A DNA stretch of 41,632 nt, from the sequence record NC_027994.1; one strand, written 5' to 3'. Every line of letters begins with the position of its first letter. Position 1 is the stretch's first letter. The DNA comes from Escherichia phage K1H. Below, in pieces: positions 2,793-38,915 of this stretch. The notes below the pieces were generated by a model. That model made no database searches, was not told the origin of the DNA, and was given only the letters and a program-made list of their open reading frames with translations. A program made the position numbers and the translations under genes.

Positions 2793-3869
2793 ATGCTATT
2801 AACTTTAGCGCCACAGGGTTTATCTATGAGCTTACTTACATCACTAATCAGCCACCAAATATGGCTGCAACGCACCGCATCCGGTGAGGTGAAAGACCTC
2901 GCGCCGTTCATTAAGGAGATGCGGGACGAAATCAAACGGCAGGTGCTGCTATTCGGCGACGACGGTCGCAGCACTGCGCGACTGAATAAACTGTTACGTG
3001 ACCTTGAAGAAGTACTGACAGGACTTACTGGTGACTGGCAAACAAAGCTGGCAGAAGACCTCAAGGAACTGGCGGTGTATGAAGCTGAGTGGAACGTAAA
3101 GACCCTGACCGCCAACGTAGATGCGGAATTTGTTACGCCCACCGCCGAACAGGTGTGGGCCGCTGCTGAGTTTCAGCCATTATCATTGAGTGGCAAGCCA
3201 GTTGATTTCACTAAACTGATGTCAGGTTGGGGTGAAACGGAAGTAGCACGTCTTGTAACCAGCGTTAAGATGGGCTTTGTACAAGGTCAAACAACACGGC
3301 AGATTGTTAAGAATGTAGTAGGCGCCGGTGGGCTGGCTGACATCTCTGAGCGTAACGCCGCTACCGTCATCCGCACCGCGCTGTCTCACGTGTCCAACGA
3401 AGCCCGTAACGAGACGTACCGCCAGAACGACGACATCATCGAGAAGTACGAGTGGGTGTCAACGCTTGACAGCCGCACCAGTACGATTTGCAGGGTCAGA
3501 GACGGGATGACGTGGGAAATTGGTAAGGGGCCGATACCCCCAGCCCATCCGAACTGCCGGTCGTGCACGGCTCCGGTAATCAGTTCCGAGTTCGACTTCC
3601 TCGATAAAGGCGCAAAACGCGCGGCTAAAGGCGCGGAAGGTGGCACTCAGGTAAGCGCAGACACCACTTACTACGAGTTCCTTAAACAACAACCGGCGTG
3701 GTTTCAGGACCAGGCGCTCGGCCCGGTGCGAGGTAAGATTTTCCGTAACAGCGGTATATCGCCGGAAGAGTTTCGCGTAATATCTGTAGATGGTTTCGGG
3801 AATCCGCTCACGCTTAAGCAGATGGCGGAACTCGATAAACGTGTTGCTGATTATCTGAAAGGGTATTAA
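2793..3869 (+). CDS. Head morphogenesis protein (putative, Mu F / SPP1 gp7-like by position)
   Basis: 358-aa ORF between portal and capsid assembly genes; start uncertain (2793 or internal ATG near 2826). Confidence 0.55.
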   Translation: MLLTLAPQGLSMSLLTSLISHQIWLQRTASGEVKDLAPFIKEMRDEIKRQVLLFGDDGRSTARLNKLLRDLEEVLTGLTGDWQTKLAEDLKELAVYEAEWNVKTLTANVDAEFVTPTAEQVWAAAEFQPLSLSGKPVDFTKLMSGWGETEVARLVTSVKMGFVQGQTTRQIVKNVVGAGGLADISERNAATVIRTALSHVSNEARNETYRQNDDIIEKYEWVSTLDSRTSTICRVRDGMTWEIGKGPIPPAHPNCRSCTAPVISSEFDFLDKGAKRAAKGAEGGTQVSADTTYYEFLKQQPAWFQDQALGPVRGKIFRNSGISPEEFRVISVDGFGNPLTLKQMAELDKRVADYLKGY

Positions 3870-4330
3870 TGATGGGCTTTTTCAAAGTAACTGATGTACC
3901 GTCACGTCGCGTAGTCCAGTACGCCCGCGTGTCTGGCTCTGGTGAGAACGTGGTGTTTATTGATGATGAAAGTGTACTCGGTACACCCGAAGACGATATG
4001 CCGTTTGCAGATAAAACCGGTATTGCGTTACCCGCGGCGGGCATGCTTTATGAAATTCCGTATCTGGCGGATGCAGGTGACGTGTATTTCTCGGTGCAAC
4101 CGAAAGACACCGAGCTGGTCGACGGTAGCGCCACCATCACCGTCGAAGTTAAGGCGGGTAAAGCGCCGTGTGTACTGACCTGGTACAAAGACGGTAAGGA
4201 AGTGGTAAACGCCCCGGAAGAGGCTTTGTCTCTAACGGTTAATGCAGTTGGCGAATACTTTGTTAAAGTTACTGATGCCGATGGTGTAGAGGCCGTAAGC
4301 AAAGCGGCGAAGGTTACTAAGCCAGAATGA
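3869..4330 (+). CDS. Hypothetical structural protein
   Basis: 153-aa ORF with ATGA-type overlap to upstream gene; followed by bidirectional terminator. Confidence 0.5.
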   Translation: MMGFFKVTDVPSRRVVQYARVSGSGENVVFIDDESVLGTPEDDMPFADKTGIALPAAGMLYEIPYLADAGDVYFSVQPKDTELVDGSATITVEVKAGKAPCVLTWYKDGKEVVNAPEEALSLTVNAVGEYFVKVTDADGVEAVSKAAKVTKPE

Positions 4331-4331
4331 T

Positions 4332-4359
4332 AAAAGGCCCCTTTCGGGGCCTTATTTTT
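4332..4359. terminator. Bidirectional intrinsic terminator
   Basis: GGCCCC-TTTC-GGGGCC with T-run on + strand and A-run (T-run on - strand) on the other side. Confidence 0.6.
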
Positions 4360-4361
4360 CA

Positions 4362-4463
4362 TCAAAGTTCACCATTCCCGCTATCTGCGTCCTCGACCCC
4401 GCTAACAGCCCACACAAACAATCCTAAATTAACCAGTAACACAAATGAAATTGCTACCATCAT
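4362..4463 (-). CDS. Small hydrophobic peptide (33 aa, MMVAISFVLLVNLGLFVWAVSGVEDADSGNGEL)
   Basis: Internal ATG of track ORF 4362..4553; GGAGG Shine-Dalgarno 4-5 nt upstream; own promoter (TTGCAG-17-TACTAT) and terminator; single predicted TM helix. Confidence 0.4.
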   Translation of the reverse strand: MMVAISFVLLVNLGLFVWAVSGVEDADSGNGEL

Positions 4464-4489
4464 AACCACCTCCACTATACGTTTACTTA

Positions 4490-4518
4490 ATAGTACCCTA
4501 TTATGTTGGTGTCTGCAA
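4490..4518 (-). promoter_or_regulatory. Sigma70-like promoter, class 1 (TTGCAG-N17-TACTAT) with embedded dyad TAATAG-N4-CTATTA
   Basis: -35 at about 4513-4518 and -10 at about 4490-4495 (minus strand); spacer nearly identical to three other class-1 promoters. Confidence 0.5.
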
Positions 4519-4559
4519 ACTATTTGTTTACGTATTCCAGTTATTCCACTCAATTGTAA

Positions 4560-4584
4560 ATGTTGGAATAAGCTATTCGAATAG
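4560..4584. repeat. Half-site cluster GAATAA / CTATTC / GAATAG plus ATGTTGGAATAA direct-repeat copy 1
   Basis: ATGTTGGAATAA (4560-4571) recurs at 5343-5354; CTATTCGAATAG is a perfect 12-bp palindrome (4573-4584) abutting a -35 hexamer. Confidence 0.6.
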
Positions 4585-4613
4585 TTGACTTTTCACCAAA
4601 AATGTGCTAAGCT
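4585..4613 (+). promoter_or_regulatory. Sigma70-like promoter (TTGACT-N17-TAAGCT with TGn extended -10)
   Basis: TTGACT 4585-4590; TG at -15/-14; weak -10 TAAGCT 4608-4613. Confidence 0.4.
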
Positions 4614-4792
4614 CCACCTGAGCTTGTGAAGTATGAACAAGCGACCGCGGCGCGGGCAGGTAACGGAGCGGGACGTAAGTCCTGAGTGTAGTTACGCTGA
4701 CGCGTTCGGAAGGGCCATACTCTATTGCTTGTGTAAAAAGTAACTGGTTTACTGAGATTACGCCGTTTCTATGTTTAAATGATAAGGACTAG

Positions 4793-4820
4793 CGCCCCGC
4801 TTTAAGGCGGGGCTTTACTT
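4793..4820 (+). terminator. Intrinsic terminator
   Basis: GC-rich stem CCCCGC/GCGGGG followed by CTTTACTT; the same hairpin sequence recurs inverted at about 34970. Confidence 0.5.
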
Positions 4821-4837
4821 ATCGAGAAAGGGGAAAC

Positions 4838-5224
4838 ATGAATCTTAAAGCAACTGTCGTAGCGGGAGCATGTTTCATCATCCTGGCTTACGCACACGGC
4901 ATCTACCAGTATCGCAGCGGCTGGAACGGAGGCCGGGCAAATCTCGTTTCGCAGCAACAGCAGAAAGCACAGGCTGAGTTAGCTAAGAAAACACAACGGC
5001 AGCAGCAGGATGAGTCGAAGGCCGCAGCCGCTGATAACGAAGGCAAGACGAAATCAGAGGTAATCACCCGTGAAGTCGTTAAGTACATTAAAACGCCTGG
5101 CCGCAGCGTGTGCACTTTTGACCCTGAGCGCGTGCAGCTCAAGTCCCGCGCCGTCGCAAACGCCAATTCCATCCCCGGATACGACGATGATGCAGCCGCC
5201 GTGCAAACTGGCACTGCCAAGTAA
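4838..5224 (+). CDS. Rz: i-spanin (Rz-like)
   Basis: 128 aa; N-terminal TM segment, Q/A/K-rich coiled-coil periplasmic domain; contains overlapping +1-frame lipoprotein ORF; AAAGGGG SD upstream. Confidence 0.75.
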   Translation: MNLKATVVAGACFIILAYAHGIYQYRSGWNGGRANLVSQQQQKAQAELAKKTQRQQQDESKAAAADNEGKTKSEVITREVVKYIKTPGRSVCTFDPERVQLKSRAVANANSIPGYDDDAAAVQTGTAK

Positions 5225-5333
5225 CGACGCGGACGAGGATTTAGCTATTGACGTCCAGAACGCAGAATGTGTACGGCAACTGAGACTTAAAGTGTTCATG
5301 TTGCAGGATTACGTGAGGAATATTCTGGAATAG
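5070..5333 (+). CDS. Rz1: o-spanin (Rz1-like outer-membrane lipoprotein)
   Basis: +1 frame inside and beyond Rz; signal peptide with lipobox LSAC, proline-rich mature region. Confidence 0.7.
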   Translation: MKSLSTLKRLAAACALLTLSACSSSPAPSQTPIPSPDTTMMQPPCKLALPSNDADEDLAIDVQNAECVRQLRLKVFMLQDYVRNILE

Positions 5334-5342
5334 TTGCCTTGT

Positions 5343-5367
5343 ATGTTGGAATAATTTATTCTTGACA
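5343..5367. repeat. ATGTTGGAATAA direct-repeat copy 2 plus palindrome GAATAA-T-TTATTC and TTGACA
   Basis: Second copy of 12-mer; 13-bp palindrome 5349-5361; TTGACA 5362-5367 without a convincing -10; followed by hairpin AATCCGGG-TGGC-CCGGATT. Confidence 0.55.
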
Positions 5368-5412
5368 TGTAAATCCGGGTGGCCCGGATTCCAACGTCCA
5401 GGGGACATACTG

Positions 5413-6039
5413 ATGAGCGAAGAAGTGAAAGACGAAACTATCGAACAACAAGAGACTAAGACCACGTTTACCAAAGAAGAAGTTGACGCGCTGGTATCCG
5501 GTCTTAAAGCTAACAACGAGAAACTCTTGTCTGAAAAGAAAGCTGCCGCCGCTGCCGCGAAAGAAGCCGCAGATGCGAAGCTGAAAGCCGAACAGGAACG
5601 CGCAAAACAGAACGGCGAACTTGAGGCATTCGAGAAAACGTTACGCAGTCAGTATGAGCCAGTTCTCGCCGAGAAGGACGGTAAGATTAGCAAAATGGCT
5701 GAGCGTATCCTCGGCGCAGAACGTAAATCAGTTATCAGCCAGTTGTCTGGAATGTTGATTGATGAGAGCGCAGCGGATATCATCGCTATGATGGTCAAGA
5801 CCGAATTCGACGGCGATGACGTTGTGACCAAGTTCACAGGTGCAGATGGTAATGTCATCACCACCGACGCAGAGCAATTTAAAAAGTATCTGCGTGAGCA
5901 CAAAGCATTTTCGCATCTGATTAAAGCAGATGCAGCAACCGGCGGCGGGGCTTCCGGTAACAAAAATTCTACTGGCGGGGCCGGTGGTGCGGACGTAATC
6001 CAGCAAAAACTTAACGCCAAATACGGCAAACGAGGATAA
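5413..6039 (+). CDS. Scaffolding protein (putative)
   Basis: 208 aa from ATG 5413 with AGGGGA SD; acidic, alanine/lysine-rich helical protein directly upstream of major capsid gene. Track ORF starts earlier (5362). Confidence 0.65.
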   Translation: MSEEVKDETIEQQETKTTFTKEEVDALVSGLKANNEKLLSEKKAAAAAAKEAADAKLKAEQERAKQNGELEAFEKTLRSQYEPVLAEKDGKISKMAERILGAERKSVISQLSGMLIDESAADIIAMMVKTEFDGDDVVTKFTGADGNVITTDAEQFKKYLREHKAFSHLIKADAATGGGASGNKNSTGGAGGADVIQQKLNAKYGKRG

Positions 6040-10441: not shown

Positions 10442-10996
10442 TTACAAACCTAATCTTAAAGCAATGCCTATAGCGTTCGATTTAACGTAACCCGGTATGA
10501 TGTAGGTGTCATAATCTTTTACACCATCAATATCGTACAGGTAACCGCGGCTGTCCCCTTCAAACGTATGGCCGTCTCTGTGCAAGCGGACGATTCTCAC
10601 ATCATGCCCCGCGGCAACGATAGGGGCTACTTCGCTGGCGAACCCGCCATCAGACACCACAAAAACTTCGTCGCCGTCGGGCAAGTTTCCGGCAAGATAC
10701 TTACCGAAATAATCATCACCGAATACCGGTTTAATGAATTGCTCGGAAATGGCAATCATGAACTGACGCCGAGACAACCCGTTAAGGAAACCCTCTGGCT
10801 TTTCTTTCCGCGCCCGGTCGTCGTAGCCGTCGAGAAACTCGCGGTAAGCATCCCGGCCTAACGCAGCCATAGCAATATTGAACATCGGATTCTTGAAACT
10901 GGCGACACCCTTCGCAAAGCCCATTTCTACCAGCGCCCTAGCAAGTGTGTCTTTCCCGCAGCCCGCAGGACCATTAAGAATAATTACCTTAGCCAT
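10442..10996 (-). CDS. P-loop nucleotide/nucleoside-monophosphate kinase-like protein
   Basis: 184 aa; Walker A GPAGCGKDT near N-terminus (GKDT variant as in phage dNMP kinases). Confidence 0.55.
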   Translation of the reverse strand: MAKVIILNGPAGCGKDTLARALVEMGFAKGVASFKNPMFNIAMAALGRDAYREFLDGYDDRARKEKPEGFLNGLSRRQFMIAISEQFIKPVFGDDYFGKYLAGNLPDGDEVFVVSDGGFASEVAPIVAAGHDVRIVRLHRDGHTFEGDSRGYLYDIDGVKDYDTYIIPGYVKSNAIGIALRLGL

Positions 10997-11481
10997 TATT
11001 TATCACTCCCATGTGGTTTTAAGTGTGTAGAGTTCCCGTTACAGTCGTATTCAGTAACTGCGTGAGTGGTTATGCCGAGTTCGCGGAAATGCTTTATTAC
11101 CGCTGGAGAGTCGTCGAATGCACACAAGATTCTCTCCGGCCCAATAGCACGCAACACCTCTTCTTTAATTACGATGTCTTTTCTGTTGTCGTGTTTGCTG
11201 CGCATGATTAACTGATAAAATTCGACGCGGTGGCGCTGCAACCACATTCTGGTTTCTTTTTCCGCGTCATCACTACGGCCTGTTAAGATAATAACGGCAT
11301 AGCGACGATTAAGGGCGTTACACAGTTCGATGTTATCTTTAATGGGTGCATCGTCTTTGCACGCCATGTTAAATGGTTTCCACGCCCAGGTTTCGCCGTA
11401 GTTATCTTTCGGCAGCAGGTGTAAACGATGGGTACCATCTGCCAATGTCCCGTCTAAATCGAAAATCACAATATCTTTCAC
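10996..11481 (-). CDS. HAD-superfamily phosphatase (nucleotidase or Pnk-phosphatase-like)
   Basis: 161 aa; N-terminal DxDGT motif (FDLDGTL). Confidence 0.6.
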   Translation of the reverse strand: MKDIVIFDLDGTLADGTHRLHLLPKDNYGETWAWKPFNMACKDDAPIKDNIELCNALNRRYAVIILTGRSDDAEKETRMWLQRHRVEFYQLIMRSKHDNRKDIVIKEEVLRAIGPERILCAFDDSPAVIKHFRELGITTHAVTEYDCNGNSTHLKPHGSDK

Positions 11482-12608
11482 CCAAGCATCTCCGGTGAAA
11501 TAGTTAAACGTGCGACCTCGCCATATTCGGCGCTATAAGTAATTACGTTTGCACTGCGGCCCGACATCCACCCACCGCGGGAGGCATATGCATCTTTAGC
11601 CGCGAGAGTGCGGTGTTGCTCAACAATCATGTTACGGCTTTCTACAATCTTTTGGTGGTGCAGGTGACCCACGTGGGCGTAGCTGTAAACACTCTCGCCG
11701 AACGCTTTGCGGAACTTGGCGATCATAACCGGTTCGATAGCGTCGAATCGTGCTTTATGCCCATGATGGAAGAACAGCGTCGTTTTGCCGTGTTGCACCA
11801 TCTTGTAAACATCCGGCGACGTATCGACGAACACACGCGGCTCATTGTCATACAGCGTACTAAACATCTCAGCTAACCAAATCATTCCGCTTTCGTCGTG
11901 GTTACCTTGCACGATAAGCAAGCGAACATTTTTATGTTTAACGAGAGCCATATCAATGACACGGCGGACCATACGAATCATGTAGCGTACAAGTTTCTGA
12001 TAGCGGGTGTCAGCGTCAAGAACATGACCACTGGCAGGTGTAACGGCGTCCAGACTATCGAAATGCGCAAGGTCGCCCAGCAGATTAATAACTCCTGTTC
12101 CGGTATCCGGTGCTTTCTGGAACGCTGCGTCGAACCAGCGGGAGAACAGGTCTTCCGCAATCTTCATGTCCCAGTCGTCGCCGCTCTCGTCAGCCCAGGC
12201 CAGCATACCGAGATGGAAATCAGACACAGTGTAAAGGTTGAGTAGCTTGTCGTCTCGTTTGGCGCGAACGGCTTTAACAGGTGCAACTGGTGTAATCTCC
12301 GACTTCATGCCTTCGATTACGGCTTTCATCAATTCAACCTGACGTTCGGCATCGGTGTCGGTCTTAACCCATTGCAACTTGGTGTTGCCAAACTCATCCA
12401 CCAGTGATGACGTTCCTTTAATCTTGTAGCCGTCCGGTACAAGGTAACTAACGTCACGCCCGTGGCCTACACCTTTCTTAGCCAGCTTCGCTTTACGGAT
12501 ACGAATAACGCGGTCGGAGATGCCGTATTTACGGGCGATGTCGATATTCTTCATACCGGCGTTCAATTCTTCCTGCAACTGTTCGTCGGTTATTTTCTTC
12601 TGGGCCAT
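11478..12608 (-). CDS. Calcineurin-like metallophosphoesterase with N-terminal HTH domain
   Basis: 376 aa; motifs DFH, GDLAHFD, GNHDE, HHGH, GHLHH; N-terminal approx 50 aa HTH-like; GAGGAAG SD. Confidence 0.65.
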   Translation of the reverse strand: MAQKKITDEQLQEELNAGMKNIDIARKYGISDRVIRIRKAKLAKKGVGHGRDVSYLVPDGYKIKGTSSLVDEFGNTKLQWVKTDTDAERQVELMKAVIEGMKSEITPVAPVKAVRAKRDDKLLNLYTVSDFHLGMLAWADESGDDWDMKIAEDLFSRWFDAAFQKAPDTGTGVINLLGDLAHFDSLDAVTPASGHVLDADTRYQKLVRYMIRMVRRVIDMALVKHKNVRLLIVQGNHDESGMIWLAEMFSTLYDNEPRVFVDTSPDVYKMVQHGKTTLFFHHGHKARFDAIEPVMIAKFRKAFGESVYSYAHVGHLHHQKIVESRNMIVEQHRTLAAKDAYASRGGWMSGRSANVITYSAEYGEVARLTISPEMLG

Positions 12609-12673
12609 GCTTACTTCCTCGTGTTTAGGATTTGTCCTATTTAACCACAGTGCATTCCTTTAAATAAAGGCGA

Positions 12674-13000
12674 CTATTTACTTTCCGCACCTATTGCCCA
12701 TCCGGTCATTACCATTTGCAGACGCGTGGCTGTCAGTAGGCTGTAGAATGCATCTCCGTTTTTCTCTACAGAACGTATTACCGTGTAGGTTACGGCTTGC
12801 GGGGGTAGGCCCGATTTACCAACCTCTACGGCGGCCTCACACTCGCGAACTGTAGAGTCCTTAAATGCCTTTACAATAGTAGGGTCGGCTTTCTCAAGCA
12901 CACCAGAAGTCATAAGAACAGATTCACTAAATACCTGTTCGCACGGGGCCCCAAAAGTAGCAAAAGACATAAGCCCCAGAGCTAATACTAATTTACGCAT
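12674..13000 (-). CDS. Small secreted/periplasmic protein (signal peptide)
   Basis: 108 aa; N-terminal MRKLVLALGLMSFATFGAP signal sequence; GAGGGA SD; class-1 promoter directly upstream. Confidence 0.5.
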   Translation of the reverse strand: MRKLVLALGLMSFATFGAPCEQVFSESVLMTSGVLEKADPTIVKAFKDSTVRECEAAVEVGKSGLPPQAVTYTVIRSVEKNGDAFYSLLTATRLQMVMTGWAIGAESK

Positions 13001-13028
13001 AATTGTTCCCTCAGTAAGTTACAGGTGA

Positions 13029-13057
13029 ATAGTACCCTATTATATTGGGGTGTGCAA
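13029..13057 (-). promoter_or_regulatory. Sigma70-like promoter, class 1 (TTGCAC-N17-TACTAT) with dyad GAATAG-TACC-CTATTA
   Basis: -35 at 13052-13057, -10 at 13029-13034 on minus strand; 34-bp segment nearly identical to 35234-35268. Confidence 0.55.
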
Positions 13058-35236: not shown

Positions 35237-35267
35237 TTGCACACCCCAACATAATAGGATACTATTC
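35237..35267 (+). promoter_or_regulatory. Sigma70-like promoter, class 1 (TTGCAC-N17-TACTAT) with dyad TAATAG-GATA-CTATTC
   Basis: -35 35237-35242, -10 35260-35265; about 30 nt upstream of first early-right gene. Confidence 0.55.
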
Positions 35268-35706: not shown

Positions 35707-35909
35707 TGCGAATCCGTATAACTGACCGCAGGCTTATCCGTATAACTGACCGCAGGCTTATCCGTATAACTGACCGCAGGCTTATAGATTTCGGTATCTC
35801 GGTAGGTGATGTTTTTCCGGCGTTCAGCATCAACCATTATGGTTTTATGATTGAGTACAAAGGGTCGTTATTGTTCGTGTATCGGGATGAATGTGAGGTT
35901 CTGGTATGA
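35706..35909 (+). CDS. Small protein with triplicated RLIRITDR peptide repeat
   Basis: 67 aa from ATG 35706 (TAATG overlap, GGAGG SD 10 nt upstream); N-terminus encoded by three perfect 24-bp tandem repeats. Confidence 0.45.
   Translation: MRIRITDRRLIRITDRRLIRITDRRLIDFGISVGDVFPAFSINHYGFMIEYKGSLLFVYRDECEVLV
35712..35785. repeat. Tandem direct repeat, 3 perfect copies of 24 bp (ATCCGTATAACTGACCGCAGGCTT)
   Basis: Read directly from sequence: copies at 35712-35735, 35736-35759, 35760-35783, followed by a 2-bp partial copy. Confidence 0.9.
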
Positions 35910-36569: not shown

Positions 36570-36600
36570 TTGCACACTAAGATAGAATAGGCTACTATTC
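36570..36600 (+). promoter_or_regulatory. Sigma70-like promoter, class 1 (TTGCAC-N17-TACTAT) with dyad GAATAG-GCTA-CTATTC
   Basis: -35 36570-36575, -10 36593-36598; perfect 6-bp half-sites. Confidence 0.55.
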
Positions 36601-38184: not shown

Positions 38185-38449
38185 GCTATTCTGGTTTGTC
38201 ACAATGCTTTCAATGGGCGCTTCGTCCCTGTTCAACGTGTATAATGAACGCGTGGACGACGGGCTGTTCGGGCGTGTTCTCTATATCCTGACTGCTATCG
38301 TCTGTGCCGCCGGATGTATTCACCTGTTACAGGGCAGCATGTCGCCTACGCTGCCTGAGACATTAATCACATTAGTCGCGCTGCGCCAGATTCGCCAGGC
38401 GTGGCTGTCATACGGAGGGCATAAGCGTGTCTCGAAATATTTCAGATAA
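38177..38449 (+). CDS. Second small membrane protein of lysis cassette (holin/antiholin-like)
   Basis: 90 aa from ATG 38177 overlapping holin stop; two hydrophobic segments. Confidence 0.45.
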   Translation: MTELFWFVTMLSMGASSLFNVYNERVDDGLFGRVLYILTAIVCAAGCIHLLQGSMSPTLPETLITLVALRQIRQAWLSYGGHKRVSKYFR

Positions 38450-38915
38450 TGGATTGCATTTCTGTGCCGCGTTCGAGGGATTCCGCGGAACTGCGTATCG
38501 CGCTACGCCGAACGAGAAGTACCTGACTATTGGTTATGGTCACTACGGGCCAGACGTAACACCAGGTAAGACCATCACACCAGGACAGGGCTTGCTGTTA
38601 CTGAATCGCGATATGGCTAAGGCTGTAGCTGCTGTTGACGCAGCAGCACACCACTCCCTGACACAGGCGCAGTTTGATGCAGTGTGCGACCTGGTCTATA
38701 ACGCAGGTGCTGGCGTGATTGCGTCTACTACGGGCGCAGGCAAGGCACTGCGTTCTGGTGATACTGCAACACTGCGGGCTAAGCTGGCGCTGTTCATCAA
38801 CCAGAACGGCAAACCACTACTTGGCCTGCGTCGCCGTACAGCCGGGCGTCTGGCGCTGTTCGACGGTAAACCGTGGCAAGAGGCTGAGGCTATTGGGCGC
38901 GAGGTGGAAGGTTGA
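38427..38915 (+). CDS. Endolysin, GH24 lysozyme-like
   Basis: 162 aa; FEGFRGTAY...TIGYGH motif typical of phage lysozymes; GTG start with GGAGGG SD. Confidence 0.8.
   Translation: MSRNISDNGLHFCAAFEGFRGTAYRATPNEKYLTIGYGHYGPDVTPGKTITPGQGLLLLNRDMAKAVAAVDAAAHHSLTQAQFDAVCDLVYNAGAGVIASTTGAGKALRSGDTATLRAKLALFINQNGKPLLGLRRRTAGRLALFDGKPWQEAEAIGREVEG

Follow-up and report, generated by a model that had tools for sequence, protein, structure and literature searches.

Within the head-gene block of Escherichia phage K1H (sequence record NC_027994.1, analyzed over its full 41,632 nucleotides (nt), hereafter referred to as the window), positions 4362–4518 hold a leftward mini-gene for a 33-residue hydrophobic peptide, whose open reading frame (ORF) carries the substitution pattern of a protein-coding gene and which, by comparison with related phages, occupies a promoter-equipped socket for accessory genes. 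Read off the minus strand, the unit opens with a −35 hexamer TTGCAG (4518–4513) and, 17 nt further on, a −10 hexamer TACTAT (4495–4490), both embedded in a conserved 30-nt promoter/operator element (4489–4518) of which the window has four copies, and in which a dyad AATAG-N4-CTATT (4489–4502) overlaps the −10. The −35 is kept as TTGCAC/G in the four window copies and in relatives, and the −10 is invariant in relatives whatever gene lies behind it. A 5′ untranslated region of ~20 nt, short and unstructured, leads to the Shine–Dalgarno sequence GGAGG (4473–4469), which a gap of 5 nt separates from the ATG; phages with a different cargo remain homologous to the window through this GGAGG. The ORF itself, MMVAISFVLLVNLGLFVWAVSGVEDADSGNGEL plus stop (4463–4362), has its start ATG at 4463–4461, a second ATG at 4460–4458 and a TGA at 4364–4362, and 8 nt past the stop begins a hairpin (4334–4353, AAGGCCCC-GAAA-GGGGCCTT, followed by a T-run) that scores as terminator-like on both strands, and thus ends both the rightward transcript of the upstream Hoc-like gene and the leftward transcript of the mini-gene. 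Promoter, ribosome-binding site, 33-codon ORF and bidirectional terminator, as proposed by an earlier, sequence-only reading of this DNA, are therefore all in place. Alignment with the nearest record, vB_EcoS-UTI89UKE1 (98.6% identity across the flanks), delimits the exchangeable module of terminator, cargo, leader and promoter to 4331–4532 on the minus strand.

The flanks of the mini-gene match ~200 Guernseyvirinae phages, chiefly Kagunavirus (E. coli) and Jerseyvirus (Salmonella), and the window is that of a Kagunavirus, a virulent E. coli siphophage. Upstream on the plus strand lie the genes for the portal, a Mu-F-like head morphogenesis protein and a Hoc-like decoration protein with an Ig domain (3869–4330); on the other side a plus-strand i-spanin/o-spanin pair (4838–5333) is followed by scaffold and then major capsid. 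All flanking head genes are thus on the plus strand, bearing out the claim that the mini-gene sits inside the head block on the strand opposite to its surroundings.

The divergence of the ORF shows that it codes. A tblastn search placed the peptide in 13 phage records, 11 of which (among them Golestan, SCS44, phiEc4, phiSD1, fBC-Eco01, SZH-1, HSE2, K-02 and BUCT823) carry a divergent allele, MLVVISVVIAVDAVMFLWACSGIGDIDTGNGEL, of the same length and with the same start and stop; it shares 64% nucleotide and 52–55% amino acid (aa) identity with that of the window. Differences between the alleles fall 11/8/18 on the three codon positions, an excess of synonymous change (Fisher p = 0.0005–0.006), with a Nei–Gojobori ratio of non-synonymous to synonymous rates (dN/dS) of 0.15–0.26, a value that is approximate since dS is saturated. 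Only the ORF frame is open in both alleles, the other five being closed or unrelated, and 17 of the 33 residues are invariant between them, including F16, W18, A19, S21, G22, D27 and the GNGEL motif. The sequence-only reading would have given up the gene had homologous regions shown neither a translation signal nor purifying selection; comparison of synonymous with non-synonymous change finds that selection, so this ground for discarding the gene falls away. We take the ORF, on this pattern, to be protein-coding.

The exact window peptide is found on 38 public contigs from many samples, in a cluster of 8 variants, and the Golestan-type cluster comprises 14 variants on ~140 contigs; scans of IMG/VR and JGI metagenomes returned Golestan-type copies only. 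At each of the eight places that were read, the exact peptide stands alone in the same slot, with an ORF nucleotide identity of 99–100% (100% save for one synonymous change). Six of these places (L069–L074) are divergent from the window in their neighboring genes, by 10–12% in Hoc, 5–7% in the spanins and ~28% in the scaffold. Because the ORF is near-identical while its flanking genes diverge, the alignments identify the cassette as having moved recently between lineages by recombination.

Two phage records, M01 (OR061069.1) and AMO_3701M (PQ474795.1), carry the window-type allele with five 1-nt insertions in the ORF. Decay of the ORF in these phages was considered and rejected: indels also interrupt essential genes, the ORF has no substitutions, and metagenomic siblings with the same flanks (L069–L073) are intact. 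Both records (L003 and L009) show many 1–2-nt indels relative to the window, including in the head-morphogenesis, Hoc and spanin genes, and have split capsid coding sequences; the indels are probably sequencing or assembly errors, and the records unfit for judging the integrity of the ORF. As for the suggestion that annotation easily misses so short a gene, this applies to HSE2, K-02 and M01, although Golestan, fBC-Eco01, phiEc4, phiSD1 and SZH-1 have it annotated as a hypothetical protein.

We surveyed the position of the mini-gene in 35 loci from IMG/VR and in others from GenBank and elsewhere. Together with the leftward promoter and a rightward one that diverges from it, the Shine–Dalgarno sequence lies in a stretch (4467–4632) that is conserved in ~178 records, whereas the body of the ORF is not, and hypervariability marks the segment from the Hoc stop to the leftward promoter. 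Neither cargo nor promoter is present in 9 of the 35 IMG/VR loci or in UTI89UKE1, relative to which the breakpoints fall at the Hoc stop and at position 4533 of the window; in these empty-slot relatives a short segment with a different hairpin replaces the module, leaving 86 nt between the end of Hoc and the rightward promoter, versus 251 nt here. Where the slot is filled, the 33-aa peptide may be alone (as in the window), joined by a 114-aa lipoprotein and a 25-aa hydrophobic ORF (Golestan-type phages), or missing from beside these two (locus L014). Some 12 alternative cargos otherwise occupy it, each starting 25–30 nt after the same −10 and behind a Shine–Dalgarno sequence: unrelated proteins of 57, 67, 81, 83 and 94–128 aa, unrelated proteins of 70–75 aa that have a hydrophobic stretch at the N-terminus, a 173-aa RusA-like/clamp-like protein, a 242-aa N6/N4 DNA methylase (PF01555) and a 179-aa protein annotated as an endonuclease. 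HNH-like proteins count among the cargos.

The mini-gene hence has the attributes of a moron, with its own promoter and terminator and with presence or absence between collinear close relatives, and the proposal that it forms a self-contained leftward transcription unit holds in that it comes and goes en bloc. These alignments show it filling an accessory-gene socket that comes equipped with a promoter, in the manner of a moron but in a virulent phage. Its opposite strand and non-structural promoter class suggest that its expression would be independent of the late operon.

A second cargo socket lies between the portal and Mu-F genes (L070 4150–4761, and L072; gap 2757–2792 in the window). In some relatives it holds the same TTGCAG...TACTATT promoter and a 173-aa RusA-like/clamp-like cargo with 88% aa identity to the version found in the Hoc/spanin slot, and in others a 55-aa acidic protein; the gap in the window contains only a hairpin (2763–2784) and a degenerate dyad at 2787.

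The promoter of the mini-gene agrees with the sigma-70 consensus at 7 of 12 positions and was not flagged by a generic promoter scan. It is nevertheless not a chance match, because its 16-mer core, ATAATAGGGTACTATT, has 7 matches in the window at ≤3 mismatches where 0.3 are expected, and because three further copies of the complete 30-nt element, TTGCAC/G-N-ATAATAGGRTACTATT, are found, at 13028–13057 (minus strand), 35237–35266 (plus) and 36570–36599 (plus), each aimed at genes; the copies at 35.2 and 36.6 kb head small rightward genes. The element equates to the phage-promoter consensus tgAATAGTa-ccTATTat-T derived with PHIRE for fBC-Eco01 (PMC9825357). Its dyad is common to two architectures: in the TTGCAC-type it lies over the −10, and in three strong minus-strand promoters that head the replication-gene block (TTGACA-N17/18-TATAGT) it lies in the spacer. 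Over the window as a whole, the dyad starts (plus-strand numbering) at 4489, 13028, 26023, 29577, 31723, 31768, 35253 and 36586.

Among the structural-gene promoters of the window, none has the dyad or a copy of the 30-nt element, and this distribution suggests that one dimeric regulator could serve all non-structural transcription. Because the motif copies otherwise head non-structural genes, we assign the mini-gene tentatively to the non-structural regulon, which would have it expressed at early or middle times. A published Guernseyvirinae transcriptome (PMC12645636) has too coarse a resolution, in time and by gene, to place it.

The copy of the motif at 13028–13057 stands before a leftward operon (10442–13057, minus strand) that itself lies within the tail-gene block. 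This operon encodes a 108-aa protein (phrog_14165) with an N-terminal, hydrophobic, signal-peptide-like stretch, a metallophosphoesterase-like protein of 376 aa, a PNK-type HAD phosphatase and an AAA/kinase-like protein, and looks like an RNA-repair module. Elsewhere in the window, a 24-nt unit, ATCCGTATAACTGACCGCAGGCTT, occurs three times in perfect tandem at 35712–35785 (plus strand); read in frame, these repeats would give a small ORF of the early region a beginning made of 8-aa repeats (IRITDRRL).

The peptide conforms to the earlier description of a hydrophobic single helix with an acidic tail: its best 19-residue Kyte–Doolittle window (residues 2–20) has a mean of 2.43 (best-window means overall are 2.4–2.6), it contains no lysine or arginine, and its four acidic residues all lie within the last 10. 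This profile predicts a single inner-membrane helix over residues ~2–22, which carries a conserved polar residue at mid-helix (N12 here, D12 in the Golestan-type allele) and a conserved W18-A-x-S-G motif, and which is followed by a conserved acidic D-x-G-N-G-E-L tail. The proton-motive force has an established effect on acidic tails in membrane topology; since the peptide has no basic residues and its tail is acidic, the tail is most likely periplasmic, in an N-in/C-out arrangement.

Searches of Pfam, NCBIfam (both at E up to 10), PADLOC and PHROGs assigned the peptide to no family and showed no significant similarity to characterized exclusion proteins. A HMMER scan of 1.84 billion representatives recovered only the cluster of the peptide itself and one spurious repetitive protein, and neither the GTDB genomes nor complete E. 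coli genomes contained it; a PLSDB search gave one match, to a 44-kb record labeled "plasmid" that by its length may be a phage genome.

The neighbors that the peptide has in other phages bear on what it might do. In Golestan-type phages its stop overlaps, by 4 nt (ATGA), the start of the gene for the 114-aa lipoprotein, which has an LSGC lipobox, a highly conserved hydrophobic segment, NVALGVTGAFLIVPLFFMD, and conserved cysteines at 40 and 113. Overlapping the lipoprotein stop in turn is an unannotated third gene (cassette L066 2099–2511), the 25-aa hydrophobic ORF MQMTNSVMFYVVLWVSAAVITAMFI; its differences from the L014 allele fall 3/3/14 on the codon positions, a distribution that marks it too as coding and under purifying selection. 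The lipoprotein family is widespread and unnamed. P22-like prophages (L015–L018, 3001–3372) of Citrobacter and of one metagenomic contig from the Sequence Read Archive hold homologues with 38–41% identity, flanked on one side by the gene-16 ejection protein and on the other by arc/ant/tailspike, and this is the position that sieA takes in P22-like phages (PMC10883804). On that positional analogy the lipoproteins may represent a candidate new family of exclusion lipoproteins. The partner lipoprotein matched the Cor phrog only weakly (E = 0.29), its AlphaFold (AF2) model was poor, with a mean predicted local distance difference test (pLDDT) score of 62.5, and the "structural protein" label that the lipoprotein bears in HSE2 is BLAST-based rather than proteomic. 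The window holds no homologue of the lipoprotein or of the 25-aa ORF anywhere, and the peptide must therefore act alone here.

Taken together, these observations make a real accessory gene for a membrane peptide highly probable. The best explanation overall, that the locus is a genuine moron-like accessory cassette encoding a single-pass inner-membrane microprotein that acts at the cell envelope, has in our estimation about an even chance of being right, and the narrower proposal, that from the envelope the peptide excludes superinfecting phage or protects the infected cell, is put forward tentatively and by association only; superinfection exclusion was among the roles named by the sequence-only reading. 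In such a scheme, the phage-specific, non-structural-class promoter/operator would drive a short, leaderless-type mRNA, with a ~20-nt 5′ untranslated region and a strong Shine–Dalgarno sequence, and the shared hairpin terminator would stop this transcript, yielding the 33-residue product. The peptide would span the inner membrane with a single helix, its acidic tail outward, and its mid-helix polar residue and tail motif would mediate binding to another membrane protein; binding of this partner would exclude a superinfecting phage or shield the infected cell. It would work alone here, and in Golestan-type phages with the lipoprotein and the second hydrophobic peptide of 25 aa. A still more specific version, which we regard as doubtful, has the peptide as a sufficient envelope effector by virtue of its mid-helix Asn/Asp and periplasmic DxGNGEL tail, and the two head-block sockets (Hoc/spanin and portal/Mu-F) as a promoter-equipped exchange system under one phage regulator.

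Several points weigh against this interpretation. Expression, membrane insertion and phenotype of the peptide are all inferred, from sequence rather than from direct evidence. The promoter is a weak sigma-70 match, and the timing assigned to it derives solely from the genes that bear the motif. The other cargos of the slot are unrelated cytoplasmic proteins, such that the slot itself is no pointer to an envelope function. The functional link takes two steps of guilt by association, and the lipoprotein is not a SieA homologue and is itself uncharacterized; moreover, the peptide occurs alone (in the window) and the lipoprotein occurs alone (in L014), and a shared function is not guaranteed. The near-zero diversity of the stand-alone allele reflects recent spread and is silent on protein-level selection within that allele, and some variants of the cluster carry W18R or D25G.

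Divergent from the mini-gene is a second transcription unit (4586–4813, plus strand), with a promoter that combines TTGACT (4586–4591) with an extended −10, TGcTAAGCT (~4606–4614), an RNA of ~4621–4813 and a terminator at 4794–4813. Many relatives have the "36-aa ORF" at 4633–4743 within it annotated as a coding sequence; its probable identity is a small structured RNA of ~190 nt. Across Guernseyvirinae its nucleotide sequence is highly conserved, and in at least 10 of 43 distinct sequences the frame is broken by indels or the start codon is missing; six base pairs of RNA 4621–4813 show compensatory changes, a number reached in none of 500 shuffles (slid controls gave 0–2). Rfam has no family that matches this RNA.

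A structured small RNA transcribed divergently, 160 nt from a gene for a peptide whose size (33 aa), single hydrophobic helix and polar mid-helix residue recall TisB/Hok-class toxins, invites comparison with type I toxin–antitoxin loci, for which divergent toxin/small RNA layouts are known (tisB/istR-1 and zorO/orzO). The sequence-only reading had listed type I toxins and membrane-depolarizing host-takeover proteins among the typical roles of such peptides; here the product would oligomerize in the inner membrane and collapse the proton-motive force, restrained by an antisense or divergent small RNA. None of the toxin families in Pfam or NCBIfam (Hok, Ldr, TisB, Ibs, ShoB, Zor, DinQ and others) matched at E up to 10, and no Rfam match exceeded its gathering score; no plus-strand promoter scored within 3500–5500, an interval that spans the ORF, and RNA 4621–4813 shares no direct-repeat or complementary stretch of ≥12 nt with the peptide mRNA. 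The RNA is, furthermore, conserved throughout the relatives, also where the slot is empty or holds another cargo, the 5′ untranslated region of the mini-gene lacks the length and structure of type I toxin mRNAs, and the peptide is missing from the E. coli and other bacterial genomes searched. The type I toxin suggestion is not supported by these results, and we consider a toxin-like or depolarizing role improbable.

Also improbable, and to a like degree, is that the 33 codons are a relic or a leader ORF, of importance only for translational coupling to the lipoprotein and left over here after deletion of the lipoprotein gene. In favor of this reading, the two genes have the ATGA overlap in Golestan-type phages, the window stop is followed by ATGAAAAATAA, in which a possible remnant of MKYIK can be made out by eye, and the ORF insertions of M01 and AMO_3701M could be read as decay. 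A pure coupling ORF has no need, however, of the aa constraint seen between alleles (dN/dS ~0.2) or of a conserved C-terminal motif; the stand-alone allele is intact on its 38 contigs, with diverse flanks in the eight places read; and the insertions in the two records are probably sequencing errors by the same evidence as above, frameshifted head and spanin genes alongside intact siblings. The lipoprotein, for its part, appears to be expressible without the peptide, its L014 gene having a GTG start directly behind the promoter.

Less probable again is a cleavable signal peptide, cut at V-W-A/V (the slash marking the cleavage site) to release a 14-residue acidic periplasmic peptide, VSGVEDADSGNGEL, a reading that was judged by inspection only. 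In its favor, the −3 and −1 positions before the tail keep small or neutral residues (V/L/I17 and A19), and the invariant polar residues are for the most part in the conserved D-x-G-N-G-E-L tail; against it, the peptide lacks a basic n-region, and its hydrophobic stretch, at ~20 residues, includes N/D12 and exceeds the usual length of an h-region.

A role in lysis timing, as holin, antiholin or spanin accessory, is prompted by the position of this membrane peptide gene next to and divergent from the i-spanin/o-spanin pair, but is very unlikely: the gene is on the opposite strand under a promoter of non-structural class, the endolysin (38427–38915) is ~34 kb away, the peptide is absent from the 98.6%-identical UTI89UKE1 and most relatives (only 13 of the ~180–200 related GenBank records that share the conserved region have it), the same slot accommodates methylase, HNH-like and other cargos, and the tail is acidic where holin C-termini are usually basic.

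If the peptide has an envelope function, it would be a minimal, 33-residue tool with which to block phage entry or modulate a host membrane protein, of use in engineering Kagunaviruses, which serve phage therapy and synthetic biology. In the doubtful version in which it is an envelope effector by itself, it would be the smallest known phage superinfection-exclusion or anti-defense membrane factor, and recombination could exchange any cargo behind ready-made operator–promoter–Shine–Dalgarno modules. More generally, the locus offers a natural gene-cassette socket, indicating both where accessory or anti-defense genes may be sought and where payloads could be placed. A lone small hydrophobic hypothetical ORF in a phage is in itself unsurprising. 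Databases already list homologues as hypothetical proteins, and phages are familiar carriers of small membrane morons; the peptide family is uncharacterized. We consider the exchangeable promoter–cargo sockets and the neighboring structured RNA to be of more interest than the peptide itself.

Set against known systems, the locus resembles TisB/IstR-1, ZorO/OrzO and ShoB/OhsC in pairing a hydrophobic single-helix peptide of ~30 aa with a structured, divergent RNA nearby, and departs from them in belonging to no toxin family, in an RNA that is non-complementary and kept independently of the peptide, and in its short 5′ untranslated region. With P22 SieA, T4 Imm, HK97 gp15 and T5 Llp it has in common an accessory gene and a predicted inner-membrane location, and with SieA, by positional analogy only, the placement of homologues of its lipoprotein partner at the sieA position of P22-like prophages; unlike these proteins, which have 83–164 aa and 2–4 helices or are lipoproteins, the peptide has 33 aa and one helix, and there is no sequence similarity.

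Also comparable are the morons of lambdoid phages, for example HK97 gp15 (work by Juhala et al, 2000, and Cumby et al, 2012, as cited in PMC10883804). As in the lambdoid cases, an autonomous promoter–gene–terminator unit is set amid late structural genes and is variably present, and lambdoid morons too are often membrane proteins; the window phage, by contrast, is virulent, so that expression from a prophage state does not arise, and its promoter belongs to a phage-wide regulated class, common to all cargos and better conserved than the cargo. Closest of all are the 33-aa hypothetical proteins Golestan gp06, fBC-Eco01_08 and phiEc4 AAKBPDAN_00006, which are true homologues, with the same slot, promoter, Shine–Dalgarno sequence and length. 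At 52–55% identity, with the same locus and with W-A-x-S-G and D-x-G-N-G-E-L in common, the window peptide belongs to their family; it differs in that the gp06-like gene is the first of a three-gene operon, whereas the window gene, at 64% nucleotide identity, stands alone.

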